From IMG/VR virus record IMGVR_UViG_2609459852_000013: a stretch of DNA of 39,105 bases; one strand, given 5' to 3'. The first letter of the stretch is position 1. The number at the start of each line of letters is the position of its first letter. The stretch is from a virus. Lineage: Duplodnaviria; Heunggongvirae; Uroviricota; Caudoviricetes. Below, piece after piece: positions 6,001 through 12,000 of the stretch. The position numbers were made by a program.

Positions 6001-9000
6001 ATTCATGAAAATCAAGCATGAACACATCCGCATGGCGATGAATGCCTGGGCTCATTCGGACGGTGAAAAAGTTCCGGCAGCTGAAATAACCCAGTCTTAT
6101 TTTGAGTTGGGTATGACGTTTCCTGAATTGTACGACGACAGCCATCCGGAAGCCCTGTCTCGTAATACCCAGAAAATTTTCCGCTGGGTAGAAAAAGACA
6201 CCCCTGATGCGGTTAAAAAAATTCAGGCGTTGTTACCGGCGATCGAAAAAGCAATGCCGCCTCCGCTGGTGGCCCGAATGCGCAGCCACAGTTCGGAATA
6301 TCACCGGGAGCTTGTCGAGCGACGGGAGCGCCTGGTGAAAGATATCGATGAGTTTGTTGCGGCAGCGATCGTGTTGTTCGATCAGATGAATCGTGGTGGT
6401 CCGGCGGGAAATGCCGTGGTGGCGCATTGATAACGTGTTCTGGGGGGAGGATGAAGCTCCTTTTTGCTGAACGTCCGCTGGTTATAAACACGCAGCTGGC
6501 GATGAAAATTGGTCTGAACGAAGCCATCGTGTTGCAGCAGTTGCATTACTGGTTGAGAGATACCAGTTCCGGCATGGAATGTGATGGTGTTCGCTGGATT
6601 TATAACACAACAGAACAATGGCTGGAGCAGTTCCCGTTCTGGTCAGAGTCAACGTTAAAACGCGCATTTGCAAGTCTGAAAACGCTGGGGCTTTTGCGTT
6701 GCGAAAAGCTCAATAAATCAAAGCGTGATATGACTAATTTTTACACGATTAATTACGAGAGCGAGCTTTTAGATGGTGGCAAAGTGAGCGAATCCATCAG
6801 GTCAAAATGCGCTGCTCCATCAGGTCAGAATGACACGATGGAAGAGGCCAAAATGGCACGTTCCATTGGTTCAAAACGACTCAATGTCATCGGGTCAAAA
6901 TGGCCTGATGATCTTACAGAGAATACAACAGAGATTACTACAGAGAATAAAAACACTTCTCGTCCGGAAGCTTCGCAACCGGACCCGCAGACGGTTGAAC
7001 AGGATTTTTTAACCCGACACCCTGACGCGGTTGTGTTCAGTGCAAAAAAACGCCAGTGGGGCAACCAGGAAGATTTGGCGTGTGCGCAGTGGATCTGGGG
7101 GCGAATCGTGAGTCTTTACGAGCAGGCCGCCAGCGATGATGGCGAGATTTCGCGACCGAAAGAACCCAACTGGACCGCATGGGCCAACGACGTGCGCACA
7201 ATGCGGATGCTGGATGGCAGAACTCACAGACAAATTTGTGAAATGTTTGGTCGGGTGCAGCGGGATCCATTCTGGGTAAAAAATATCATGAGTCCGTCAA
7301 AGCTTCGCGAAAAATGGGATGAACTGGTTATCCGCCTGGAGCGTTCGTCTGTACAGCGTTGTGTGAATCATATTTCTGAGCCGGATACCGAAATTCCGCC
7401 GGGGTTCAGGGGGTAACGGGCCATGAAAAATATCGCGGCAGGTGGTGTTCTTGAGCGTATCCGTAAGCTGACTCCGCAGCATGTAATCGCGCCGTACCGG
7501 ACAGTGGACGAGTGGCGCGAGTGGCAACTGGCAGAAGGGCGAAAACGTAGCGAGGAGATCAACCGCCAGAATCGCCAGTTGCGGGTGGAAAAAATCCTGA
7601 ATCGTTCGGGCATCCAGCCTCTGCACAGCAAATGCTCGTTTGCGAATTATCAGGTGCAGAACGACGGGCAAAAACACGCGCTGAGCCAGGCAAAATCCAT
7701 CGCTGACGAACTGATGACAGGGTGCACGAATTTTGTGTTCAGCGGTAAGCCGGGTACCGGAAAGAACCACCTTGCAGCCGCCATTGGCAATCATCTTCTG
7801 GCGAAAGGTCGCAGCGTGATTGTGATAACGGTGGCTGATGTGATGCTGGCGTTACACAACAGCTACGACAACAAAAACTCAGGCGAAAAATTTTTACAGG
7901 GGTTGTGTGATGTTGACCTGCTTGTCCTGGATGAAATCGGAATGCAGCGGGATACGCGCAACGAGCAGGTCACGCTGAACCAGATAGTCGACCGCAGAAC
8001 GGCTTCGATGCGTAGTGTCGGAATGCTGACGAACCTGAACCACGTAGCGATGAGTACGCTTCTTGGCGAGCGTGTGATGGATCGCATGGTCATGAACGGT
8101 GGTCGCTGGGTGAATTTTAACTGGGAGAGCTGGCGTTCGAATGTCAGACACCTGAGGGTTGTGAAGTAATTTCAGGAGGACTTATGGTAAAAGTTTTTAC
8201 TCCCGAACAACGGGAAGAAGTAAAGGCGCGTATTGTGGAACTGGTACGCAGATATGGTAGGAAAACGCGTAAACAACTGGAAAATGAAACAGGGGCGACG
8301 AGACATCTGATTGAAGTTCTGGCGAAAGAACTGGTAGACAGTGGTGTTGTATATGGTTCAGGGCATGGAATATTCCCTTCTGAGCAGGTACGTAAAGACT
8401 GGATAAAAGCCCATAAAGAGATGTCTAAAGGTGCAGCGAAAAAGAAGAGCGACCCTGGCCTGATTTATTCATTACCAGATGGAGAGATACGCCACTACGA
8501 CAGGCGTCAGAACATAATCTGTAGCGAGTGCCGGAAGAGCGAAGTTATGCAGCGCGTACTGGCGTTTTATCGGGGAAACTTACAGGAGGTGCTGTTGTGA
8601 GCCAAATTAACAATCGGAACTTGGTGAAGTGAAAGAGAAAGCATAATCCAAATCTGAATAATTAAATTCAGCACTGTTAAAAATTTAATCCTTAACCGGA
8701 GGGATTTCCGCACCCTCAGAACATCAGGAGGCCGCCCGAAAGGGCGGTGGAGATAATAATGGAAATAACTAAAGAACGATTATTGGAAATAGCAAATCTT
8801 AGTGATAGGGCATTAAGTGATGGGAGAATTATTTCTCCTGATGCTTATGAATCAGTTAAAAGTATAGAAATAATGATGATGGCCAGGATGCTTCTTGGTC
8901 GCCTCAAAAAAGAATATAAAAAAAAGGTGGATAGCAATGCTAATATATATGATATTTTGGACAGTTGGGGGGCTTGGGCTGCAGCTGGAAATAGTTCTAT

Positions 9001-12000
9001 CAACTGGCAGCAAGTGGCTGATAAATATAAAGATGTAGTACCTCATGGTAAGAAATTACGCCGTCAGTGTGGCAACGATGAAGGTCGTATGATTGATACC
9101 TGCATGTTGAAGCTTAAACAATATAGAATAGATGACTATGAGTTAATTATCGCTCATTTTGTTATAGGTATATCTTTGCGTACAATAGCACGAAGGTACA
9201 AATGTTCAGATGGAACAATAAGAAAGAATATACAACTTACAATGGGAGTATTGTTAGGATTGTCTTTTTATGTGCAATTATAGATATATCACATGAGCCT
9301 TGTTATGTCTTTTAGACGCGACCAGGTAGTATAAAACTTTTTAAATGTAATAAGCAGGAAAAAAATTCCCACTTGGAGTAATAGTTGGGCATATGTGTGC
9401 TCGTCGGCATCTTTTACTAGTGGGAATTTAAACTTTAGTGTATCAGGGAAAAATAGTAAAATGATAAAAATAATACAAACTGATAGTAACCATCCCATAG
9501 TGGAGTGCATTTCTTCGGTCAGTTTTTTCAAATAACCAGTTTTTCCTATATTTCTAATTAGCGTATTATCTCTAGCTGAAGCAATCAAGGTAAGCGAACC
9601 TAAAACAAAGCCAAATAATATCCCAGAAAATGTAGAAACGGCCGAAGCGATTGGCTGAATTTGTGCAAAATTTAGCTTTGCAGAAAGAGGCCATGCGATG
9701 ATACAAAAAACAACAGAGGCTAAATTATAACCATAACTGTACAAAGTTATCAATTTCCCCTTTTTCATACCATCGCTCCAAAATTAATCAACTCTTTGAT
9801 TGGCTACTCCAAAGTATGCCTTCAATTCATCATCTTTACTATCTTTTGCAAGAGTTAAGGCGCTCCAAATGCTGCCAACTAATGGATACCTACCTCCAAG
9901 TTCAACATCAGTGTAGTAGACTAATTTGTCTGCTACAAGATCGATAGGATGTTGTACACCGGTCTCAATGTCTTGGGTTTCTAGTTTAAGTTTTTCAACC
10001 TCAAAAGTCTCTAGTGTTTCTTTAAAGGCTCTTTTTAGTTGAGAACCTAGATAGCGAGATTCAGGATCTTCAGAACGACTATCTCCACGTAATGTAAGAT
10101 TTACTTTGGCAGAATTAGTACCATTTAGAGTGGCTATCAATGCATTGTTGAAGTTATGTTCAACATCCTCATATAGTTGCGCATTCTTTGGCCGAGCGAT
10201 ACCGATTTCTAGAGTTTTGATTCGAACTTCATTACGCATCAACCACTTTAAACTACTGGTCTGAATGATGGGATTAACAGTTGTATTTTGTGAACTGTTG
10301 GAAAGATATTTACTTAATAGCAACCAGCCATAACAGAGTCTGTTTCGTTGAATTATTAAAACTGAGTCTTGGGTATAAAAATGAAAATAAGCTTTTTCTA
10401 ATAAGTTTTCATTGATTTCAAGTTTAATTTCTCTTTCTTCACCTCCGGCTACAGCAACATGAGGAAGATTATTGGTTCTGTGTTTTCCTATAACTCCCCT
10501 GAAACCATAGTCGGTTCTTTCCATGAAGCGCATTTCAACTAGTTTATTTCCTATTTTACGTACAGTTTTGTCTCGGCCTTCGCTGTATGACTCAAAAATT
10601 TTTGAAAAAACAGCTTCAGGTGAATTAACTCCTGCATTTGTATCAGTGCTTATAGTGTGACATTGATAAAAATCGAAGAAAAAGCGCTTGCTAGTCATTG
10701 CAAAAATTTCCTGTAAAAAATAATTACATACTTAAGATACTACAAAGAATAATGCGTACGCAAAATTTTTTGTTGAGTAGAATATGTTCGTGGGGTATTT
10801 TTCGTTAAGATATAATTACCATGGTAACTTTTGCGTTGGTAATGCATTATGTGGTGGAGAAAAAGAGAGAGTCTTATCTTTAAATTATCGCCAGCCTATA
10901 TGACTATATGAGTAGTATTTAGATGGGAAATTGTTGAGTTATTGAAAGGAACCATAACCTTTATGTAAAATTACTGCGGGTGCTTGAGGCTATCTGTCTC
11001 AGGCATGAACACCAAAAGGCAGATAGAGAAAAGCCCCAGTTAACATTATGCGTCCTGCAAGACGCTTAACATTAATCTGAGGCTCAATCCATGCTGAACA
11101 CATGTAGGTTAGCCTCTTACGTGCCGAAAGGCAAGGAGAAGCAGGCTATGAAGCAGCAAAAGGCGATGTTAATCGCCCTTATCGTCATCTGTTTAACCGT
11201 CATTGTGACGGCACTGGTAACGAGGAAAGACCTCTGCGAGGTACGAATCCGAACCGGCCAGACGGAGGTCGCTGTCTTCACAGCTTACGAACCTGAGGAG
11301 TAAGAGACCCGGCGGGGGAGAAATCCCTCGCCACCGCTGATGTGTCAGGCATCCTCAACGCACCCGCACTTAACCCGCTTCGGCGGGTTTTGTTTTTTCT
11401 GGTCGTTCTGGTTTACAATCCATCCGTCAGCCTGAACAACTGGCACCTGCTGCGCCAGCAGAGAAAACAGATGGCGCACGATACCAAATTTTACAATTCG
11501 GATAACTCTGCCGCCCCTGCCAGCAGGCACGGGCGGCGTTCTCATGCATTCAAATCTGACTGGTATCAGCACGACCCCTGCACCGAAGAACAGGATGAAT
11601 GGCTGATTCAGCGCTACCGCAGACACGGATACGAGATTAAGAAAGCCCTCAGCCTCGATTATCGTCACTGGATAATCTTCGTCAGGCTCCCTTATTCCGA
11701 ACGCCCACCGCGTCCGTCCCGCACATTCCAGCAACGCATCTGGAGGTAACGTGCGGGTATTACTTCGACCTGTTCCGGTACCGGAACTTGGGCTGGTGGT
11801 GCTAAAACCGGGGCGTGAATCCATGCAGGTATTTCATAATCCTCGAGTTTTGGTGGAGCCGGAACCGAAAAGCATGCGCGGTCTGCCGTCCGGAGTCGTT
11901 CCTGCCGTTCGCCAGCCATTGGCGGAGGATAAATCATTACTGCCATTTTTCAGCGATGAGCGGGTGATTCGTGCTGCTGGTGGTGCTGGTGCACTGTCTG

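Follow-up and report, generated by a model that had tools for sequence, protein, structure and literature searches.

A relocated Q21-family gene as candidate regulator of a reverse-oriented cargo slot in a lambdoid prophage of Escherichia coli

The locus and its Q-like gene

The window, by which we mean the complete stretch of 39,105 nucleotides that was analysed (IMG/VR record IMGVR_UViG_2609459852_000013), represents a Qin/Rac-like lambdoid prophage of Escherichia coli and is 100% identical to NZ_CP159170 and other sequences. This paper concerns one gene of its early region, 8759..9283, which encodes a relative of the phage Q antiterminators, together with two genes that converge on it (hereafter the cargo) and a short site that lies beyond them. 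The three genes form an island with a GC content of 0.31-0.40 between flanks of around 0.52, and the AT-richness given in the initial annotation was thus recovered. The Q-like gene follows the replication genes and a DUF977 gene, precedes hokD and lies 3.5 kb upstream of a second Q gene, the canonical late antiterminator of the prophage, whose earlier assignment to the lambda/QuuQ type was borne out. Of 5,426 complete E. coli genomes, 19 carry the whole three-gene block and 68 a full-length copy of the Q-like gene. The coordinates of all features are collected in Table 1.

Table 1. Features of the Q-like gene, its cargo and the borders of the slot in the window
Feature	Position	Strand	Basis or remark
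Conserved leader, left border of the cassette	8628..8758	+	conserved ahead of all long-form genes, independent of the gene that precedes it
Perfect 18-bp palindrome CTGAATAATTAAATTCAG	8654-8671		in leader
Element TCCTTAAC	8689-8696		in leader
Hairpin 1	8699-8717	+	in leader
GAAA-loop hairpin	8731-8748	+	7-bp stem with one G-U pair
Shine-Dalgarno sequence GGAG	8749-8752	+	
Long-form Q21/933W-family gene	8759..9283	+	ATG 8759 to TAG 9283, 174 residues
Orphan N-terminal extension, residues 1-61	8759-8941	+	relatives of 111-120 residues align to residues 62-174 only
Complete short-Q domain	residues 62-174 of the long-form gene	+	alignment with short forms
Predicted recognition segment CSDGTIRK	~9203-9226	+	alignment
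Cargo gene 2, multi-pass membrane protein of 159 residues	9289..9768	-	phrog_8552, E 1.7e-68
Cargo gene 1, DUF6731 protein of 304 residues	9784..10698	-	PF20505, E 1.4e-12; phrog_7651, E 7.7e-141
Predicted cargo promoter	10734..10763	-	-35 TTGCGT 10763-10758, 18-bp spacer, -10 TATCTT 10739-10734
Predicted Q-binding-element-like site TGCGTACGCAAAA	10753-10765		13 bases; core is a 10-bp perfect palindrome, TGCGTACGCA, at 10753-10762
Right border of slot: hok promoter	10942-10971	+	promoter scan
Right border of slot: sok/hok RNA	10978-11153	+	Rfam sok, 119.8 bits, E 4.9e-28
Right border of slot: hokD open reading frame	11148-11303	+	RefSeq annotation
Second Q, canonical late antiterminator, lambda/QuuQ type, outside the cassette	12811..13563	+	PF03589, E 1.5e-51; phrog_127, E 1.3e-102

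The 174-residue protein contains the motifs that had been claimed for it (WGAWAA at residues 70-75, QCGNDEG at 103-109 and CSDG at 149-152), and its proposed membership of the Q family was confirmed by a match of residues 62-168 to PF06530, Phage_antitermQ (105.2 bits against a cut-off of 26, E 2.6e-30). It likewise matches phrog_79, 'anti-termination protein Q-like' (E 3.9e-32), and is labelled 'antiterminator Q family protein' in RefSeq. Compared with the Q21 protein of phage 21, for which structures have been solved (PDB 6P18, 6JNX), phmmer gave an E-value of 9e-4, and of 5.5e-6 when a family profile was used. Residues 66-147 align with residues 19-101 of Q21, which span the torus-forming H1-H3 region, and the elements WGAW and R..C.DD.G are invariant in the alignment. 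The segment SLRTIA..CSDGTIRK resembles a helix-turn-helix (HTH) and aligns with the HT[loop]H of Q21, although the loop of 18 residues is absent throughout the subfamily and the structure model is poor. Judged by its sequence, the gene is a genuine relative of the phage Q antiterminators.

The subtype originally proposed has to be revised. PF06530 comprises the Q21/Q933W family and PF03589 the Q-lambda family (Yin, Kaelber and Ebright, bioRxiv 10.1101/651190), and the protein is therefore of the Q21 type and not of the 82/QuuD type; among its Pfam matches at E up to 1 there was no 82-family model. The sigma-70 region-4-like HTH that had been proposed was not recovered either, as the match to TIGR02937 (sigma-70 region 4 / extracytoplasmic function) reached 16.9 bits, under the cut-off of 42.9, and all Pfam HTH models scored far under their cut-offs. 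A structural likeness of Q21 itself to sigma region 4 has been published (bioRxiv 10.1101/651190).

Long and short forms of the protein

The database relatives fall into two groups. Long forms of 170-185 residues, at least 65% identical to the protein, are found in E. coli and Salmonella, whereas the much larger group of short forms (111-120 residues) is 55-60% identical to residues 62-174 only, in agreement with the extension of around 60 residues noted earlier. A search for the origin of this extension gave no homologues outside the long-form lineage, all further matches being frameshifted or truncated versions of this very gene. A Rosenbergiella locus (L057) was considered as a further long form and rejected, as its reading frame overlaps the upstream gene and its most likely start is an internal MRDMYEV.

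The short Q is the only Q of its carriers and is encoded at the canonical late position, with DUF968/RusA ahead of it and the genes for holin and endolysin behind it. Carriers include e14-like and other lambdoid prophages and the phages mEp460, Stx1_EH1992 and Klebsiella Kp4865-4, of which mEp460 is a confirmed temperate phage (PMC9836094). Among the phage isolates in the collection the long form was not found. A place just upstream of the late promoter and of lysis and other late genes, a mark of the family, is thus seen for the short-form relatives and not for the long-form gene. Short forms (113-116 residues in mEp460, Stx1_EH1992, Kp4865-4 and many enterobacterial prophages) share with the window protein the segment KCSDGTIRK, the DNA site described below, the convergent cargo slot and several types of cargo. 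They differ from it in being the sole, late-position Q and in keeping a -10 element, a leader and a terminator, while the window protein is extended, is encoded ahead of hokD and has lost these promoter features.

A conserved site beyond the cargo

Each locus carries, shortly beyond the cargo start, one plus-strand copy of a site with the consensus GCGTACGCAAA, of which TGCGTACGCAAAA is the copy in the window. At up to one mismatch TGCGTACGCAAAA occurs once in the 39-kb window, where around 0.2 occurrences per 39 kb are expected for a 12-mer; on the basis of this count and of those over the related loci, given next, a chance match was rejected. The order of Q gene, 0.6-2.6 kb of cargo, nearly always on the opposite strand, and site was found in 61 of 63 related loci from around 25 enterobacterial species; both loci without the site are truncated contigs. 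In a survey of one genome per species (28 loci from around 25 species of Enterobacter, Klebsiella, Raoultella, Kosakonia, Citrobacter, Buttiauxella, Mangrovibacter, Erwinia, Providencia and other genera) the site lay 0.6-2.6 kb downstream of Q in 27 loci, the exception being a contig that ends 1.4 kb after Q, and the reading frames between Q and the site were almost exclusively on the minus strand. The same linkage holds for all 31 non-truncated loci among those numbered L001-L032, as well as for mEp460, Stx1_EH1992 and Kp4865-4. The flanks on both sides of the site are specific for the type of cargo, and the site itself is unchanged.

Taken as a comparison of sequences, these data define a portable cassette of three parts, namely the Q gene, a swappable cargo in reverse orientation and the 13-base site. 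Since the long-form gene is one arm of this cassette, it most likely controls the neighbouring cargo and not the late genes of the phage. The initial annotation had offered, as one of its options, a Q-derived regulator of the adjacent module; the comparative linkage, with the reverse cargo and a site that overlies the predicted -35 of the cargo, speaks for that option, whereas the key site at 10753-10765 had been missed. Literature searches returned no description of this cargo slot. What appears to be new here is a relocated and extended protein of the Q21 family, tied to a widespread and previously undescribed cargo slot whose site would double as a -35 element.

The site in the short-form loci

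In the short-Q loci the site is followed at a fixed spacing by a TATCGT-like hexamer and then, 12 nt past the A-run, by the leader GTTAAGAGTGGTTACTTCGCCACA. The 12-nt spacing to GTTAAGAGTGG in combination with an intrinsic terminator 55-97 nt downstream was found in around 20 of the approximately 28 usable short-Q loci. The short-form target, GCGTACGC(AAAA), thereby sits in the spacer of a unit that resembles a late promoter. The arrangement is the same in the curated late promoter pR' of phage 21, where a Q-binding element (QBE; ATTGAGCA AATGAGCA) fills the spacer between the -35 and -10 elements, a sigma-dependent pause element comes next and termination is encoded within 50 nt by a terminator. 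The site in the short-Q loci is accordingly predicted to be the QBE of their late promoter.

Phage 1720a-02, which encodes a Q that is 39% identical and has no cargo, offers a comparison. Its leader and terminator start around 25 bp after the Q stop, and at the equivalent position GCGGTCCGC is found in place of GCGTACGC; the recognition segment reads KKSEKAIR, against KCSDGTIRK in the subfamily studied here. The site therefore belongs to the unit of Q and late promoter and changes with the recognition helix of Q. Read in this way, the alignments place the cargo of the subfamily as an insertion between Q and the target of that same Q.

With Q21 the subfamily shares the Pfam family, alignable H1-H3/torus and HTH regions and, as far as the short-form relatives are concerned, a site in the spacer of the late promoter, with a pause-like element and, within around 100 nt, a terminator downstream of it. 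The window protein differs from Q21 in its low identity (around 23%), the absence of the 18-residue HT[loop]H loop, a shorter C-terminus and the 60 additional N-terminal residues. Moreover, its site is palindromic (GCGTACGC), whereas that of phage 21 is a direct repeat (ATTGAGCA AATGAGCA), and its gene lies in the early region with no late-promoter unit adjoining it.

A separate observation relates to the Stx1a-converting phage Stx1_EH1992 (L035, 3995-8281). A reverse cargo of three genes separates its short Q from stx1AB, and the QBE/late-promoter unit is located at around 6538, directly upstream of stx1A, so that the cargo slot lies between Q and the toxin genes.

Features lost and kept in the long-form loci

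The long forms occur with six types of cargo, and neither the conserved leader nor a terminator was found to the right of the site in any of them. The hexamer at the rightward -10 position lacks A at position 2 and/or T at position 6 in five of the six types (it reads TTTTGT in the window). Instead, the site is followed by 60-180 bp of cargo-specific sequence and then by the hok promoter and sok/hok. Another mark of the family is a cognate QBE that lies within a promoter and has a sigma-dependent pause element and a terminator downstream; the site as such is present in the window, but the conserved -10, leader and terminator that come after it in most short-form loci are missing from all long-form loci. 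The site is invariant in the long-form loci, the recognition segment CS(D/E)GTIRK is kept, and a leftward -10 is present in five of the six types. All six types moreover have a T at position -1, which is found in around 3 of 33 short-form loci and which makes the core a perfect 10-bp palindrome (TGCGTACGCA).

These features bear on the possibility that the long form is a working antiterminator, which would load at a rightward promoter by means of the site and read through hokD, DUF968 and the QuuQ-type Q gene, thus creating a two-step Q cascade. We consider this improbable. The motifs WGAW and R-x-QC-x-DDEG have been kept, as has the segment they lie in (see below), and the site has its homologue in the QBE of a genuine late promoter. 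The window has, in addition, a promoter-like pair (TTGAGT-17-TATTTT), a TATAAT and, ahead of CTTTT, the weak hairpin TTACCATGGTAA, all of them to the right of its site. The loss of leader, intrinsic terminator and rightward -10 described above argues against such a role, however, and so does the nearness of the hok promoter, while the window site lies around 26 bp further upstream than in the functional relatives, outside the spacer.

The site and the cargo promoter

On the minus strand the site reads TTTTGCGTACGC and contains TTGCGT, the -35 element of a predicted cargo promoter that lies around 30 nt ahead of the start codon of the cargo (ATG at 10698). Of 37 distinct loci, 23 have a hexamer of the TAnnnT type 16-18 bp (usually 17) after TTGCGT; to be counted, a hexamer had to agree with TATAAT in at least four of its six positions, among them the A in second and the T in sixth place. 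At random positions 2.3 such loci were expected (200 trials, maximum 7). Whatever the type of cargo, its start codon mostly lies around 55-80 bp from the site.

The rightward and leftward promoters would therefore overlap back to back, and given that the site supplies the -35 of the cargo promoter, a Q bound there would sit on that promoter. The coupling of Q and cargo is deduced from this geometry.

Selection and mosaic structure of the long-form gene

The ratio of nonsynonymous to synonymous substitution rates (dN/dS) is 0.37 in the extension, 0.23 in residues 62-112, 0.25 in residues 113-148 and 0.12 in the recognition segment. The whole long-form protein is under purifying selection. Along the gene, dS rises 15-fold; it is 0.19 in the extension and reaches 1.9-2.9 towards the 3' end. 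The 5' half thus behaves as a homogenised anchor, and the 3' half is inherited together with the cargo. The sequence comparisons support the view that the long-form gene is a mosaic descendant of a subfamily of genuine late antiterminators. An origin from a mosaic ancestor was also part of the earlier proposal of a second antiterminator; the gradient in dS and the cargo types shared between both forms agree with such an origin, and each of the two options offered appears to hold part of the answer.

The near identity of the 5' half across loci with different cargo could also be taken to mean that the gene has no role of its own and is a leftover Q fragment, kept as an anchor for homologous recombination or as a hitch-hiker of the cargo. 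The existence of frameshifted and truncated copies would fit. Nonetheless, this is very unlikely, as intact reading frames of 170-185 residues persist over 65-100% identity in both E. coli and Salmonella, every segment is constrained, the recognition helix most of all, and the 13-nt site is invariant in spite of cargo-specific sequences on either side.

A third possibility is that the protein acts in trans, mimicking a Q and occupying the late-promoter QBE of mEp460-type phages, whether these are incoming or co-resident, so as to block or hijack their late transcription in competition between phages. Its recognition segment is the same as that of the Q of many active lambdoid phages with the same late-promoter site, the N-terminal extension could disable productive loading, and the slot otherwise holds candidate defence genes. 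Against this, the gene is part of the early rightward operon, and neither a promoter scan nor a comparison of leaders revealed a clear promoter of its own. Furthermore, the retained DNA specificity is already accounted for by the cis site, which all long-form loci have conserved. We regard the chance that the protein acts in trans as slight.

The cargo genes

The stops of the Q-like gene and of the membrane-protein gene (9283 and 9289) are 5 bp apart. Both this convergence and the lack of any terminator-like site in between, as reported initially, were confirmed, and the geometry proved to be general, with gaps of -8 to +30 bp in other loci. In mEp460 (L033, mEp460_4F5) a strong terminator-like hairpin, AGGGGGAATTACCCCCCT, with a T-run is found directly after the short Q, at 4341-4358; such a hairpin is absent at the tight junction of the window. 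The second cargo gene of mEp460 is apparently disrupted.

Other E. coli prophages have a Q-like gene (84-88% identical at the DNA level) at this very position between the replication genes and hokD, with different convergent genes, and conversely the block of the window is also found behind different upstream neighbours. At least six cargo types could be discerned in E. coli prophages and IMG/VR contigs, all on the minus strand. Besides the pair in the window, long forms are accompanied by a protein of 477 residues with an NdpA-like (PF04245) protein, by proteins of 182 and 309 residues, or by a set of three genes for 197, 142 and 363 residues. Types of cargo are common to the late and the early slot: the type C proteins of the long-form locus L003 share 74-80% identity with those of the short-form locus L006, and the NdpA-like pairs are 37-54% identical between loci of both forms.

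When compared with known families and defence models almost none of the cargo types gave a match, the exceptions being the NdpA-like domain and the PADLOC candidate PDC-M53A (E 2.4e-21), the latter being the sole PADLOC match among the other cargo types. For the cargo of the window, PADLOC returned a weak RexB-like match of the membrane protein (E 1.5e-3) and no match of the DUF6731 protein, and no paper that mentions DUF6731 was found in the literature. We consider the pair of DUF6731 and membrane protein a candidate abortive-infection module. Several cargo types (in loci L002, L007, L008 and L017) combine an NdpA/YejK-like nucleoid-associated protein (PF04245, E down to 2.8e-51) with an uncharacterised protein of 390-490 residues. 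Two of these pairs (L002, L017) were run through PADLOC and gave no match; the NdpA-like pairs may constitute an undescribed two-gene prophage module.

A possible role of the long form in control of the cargo

Based on the above, we propose that the long form is a Q-derived regulator of the adjacent cargo, to which we assign roughly an even chance of being correct. The comparison shows as the ancestral arrangement a Q of 113-116 residues at the late position, followed by the slot for reverse cargo and then by its own target in the spacer of the late promoter. In the most economical reading, the unit of Q, cargo and QBE was copied out of the late region of a prophage that already had another late Q, of the QuuQ type or DUF1133, into the early (nin) region, where it now has the replication genes on one side and hokD on the other. 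The rightward antitermination target would then have decayed, while the pair of protein and site was kept for a second role at the cargo promoter.

In the present state the long Q would bind TGCGTACGCA at 10753-10762, probably as a dimer, and thereby control transcription of the operon for DUF6731 and the membrane protein. The most likely effect would be repression by blocking of the -35, once the early rightward operon is switched on after induction, and antisense read-through over the 5-bp convergent junction would strengthen it. The cargo would thus be on in the lysogen and off during the lytic growth of the prophage itself. Binding, the direction of regulation and the function of the cargo are all deduced from sequence and arrangement.

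Two known systems are of help in judging this proposal. In phi80, expression of Q lowers that of a reverse-oriented immune gene, taiEcA, described as part of a 'non-contiguous operon' (PMC11364771), which provides a precedent for repression of a prophage defence gene on the opposite strand. The effect in phi80 is ascribed to the late transcript that crosses the gene inside the late operon, whereas the cargo described here lies upstream of the late promoter and the coupling would depend on the shared Q site/-35 and on convergent early transcription. The paQ promoter and anti-Q RNA of lambda are comparable in the leftward antisense transcription through the Q gene, and phage 21 has an annotated paQ inside Q; the difference is that the leftward transcript would here be the mRNA of the cargo itself.

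Several observations weigh against regulation of the cargo by repression. Q21 binds its direct repeat as two head-to-tail protomers and not as a palindrome (bioRxiv 10.1101/651190), and since the relative of known structure uses a direct repeat, the mode of binding to the palindrome is an assumption. Residues 62-112, the equivalent of the Q21 torus that contacts RNA polymerase, are still constrained, which counts against a pure repressor, as such a protein would not need this segment; a residual antitermination or an activating role like that of sigma region 4 would be compatible with it. Residual antitermination would also be compatible with the promoter-like pair, the TATAAT and the hairpin to the right of the window site, and some long-form types have retained a partial plus-strand -10 (TATCAA, TATCTA, TATTGT). 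Considering that the long forms constitute a single clade, features found in six of six types are not independent events. The AlphaFold2 model, based on an alignment of 43 sequences, is too poor for a fold search or for a reading of the extension (predicted local distance difference test score, pLDDT, 50; predicted template modelling score, pTM, 0.27). Finally, no significant PADLOC match to a defence system was obtained for the cargo of the window.

If control of the cargo by the long form is nevertheless correct, the prophage would switch off its own abortive-infection genes on entering lytic growth and would reuse the DNA-binding part of a textbook antiterminator to do so. It would also imply a widespread and easily recognised hotspot, consisting of a Q gene, reverse cargo and then GCGTACGCAAAA, that harbours uncharacterised candidate defence modules (among them DUF6731 with the membrane protein, the NdpA-like pairs and the three-gene set) in around 25 enterobacterial species and includes an Stx1 phage with the slot between Q and stx1. 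The palindrome would, in addition, provide a new type of QBE for structural work on the loading of Q. A more far-reaching scenario, which we put forward tentatively and think rather unlikely in its entirety, is that this Q subfamily co-evolved with a plug-in slot in which the QBE serves as the -35 for interchangeable, defence-like cargo, making Q and cargo a mutually exclusive switch, with the cargo active in lysogens and Q, but not the cargo, active during the lytic cycle. In the early-region copy of E. coli and Salmonella prophages, Q would then have lost antitermination and acquired a new domain at its N-terminus, so that its sole task would be to act on prophage immunity genes as their repressor or anti-repressor.

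Borders of the slot and minor observations

The initial annotation had pointed to the GAAA-loop hairpin just ahead of the gene. The hairpin exists and is conserved in the long-form loci, but it belongs to the border of the slot and not to the gene, since the leader 8628-8758 also precedes unrelated small reading frames in phage vB_EcoS-640R1 (L038). Leader and hairpin are thus best described as the left border of the early-region slot. The consensus fold of the leader comprises two hairpins with only one-sided (or wobble) changes in all long-form loci and has a z-score of -2.1. A Q-specific riboregulator, nut site or boxB was considered and rejected on account of the unrelated reading frames that share the leader, the lack of an Rfam match for it and the lack of compensatory changes. 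Most long-form loci, and vB_EcoS-640R1 as well, have the palindrome at 8654-8671 in conserved or almost conserved form; a LexA box was rejected for it, as the CTG-N12-CAG spacing is wrong.

The constant right border of the early-region slot is formed in all long-form loci by a complete sok/hokD type I toxin-antitoxin locus (10978-11303). Directly after hokD, ahead of a small reading frame, DUF968 and the Q genes, 11312-11393 on the plus strand shows a weak match to the Hfq-binding small RNA isrK in Rfam (27.2 bits against a gathering score of 50, E 0.0036). In Gifsy-1 of Salmonella isrK lies upstream of the antQ antiterminator module. Immediately downstream of the QuuQ-type Q and before the tRNA cluster, a reading frame of 134 residues on the minus strand (13764-14168) lies in a patch with a GC content of 0.30-0.34 and resembles a second AT-rich insert in reverse orientation, beside the other Q of the prophage.

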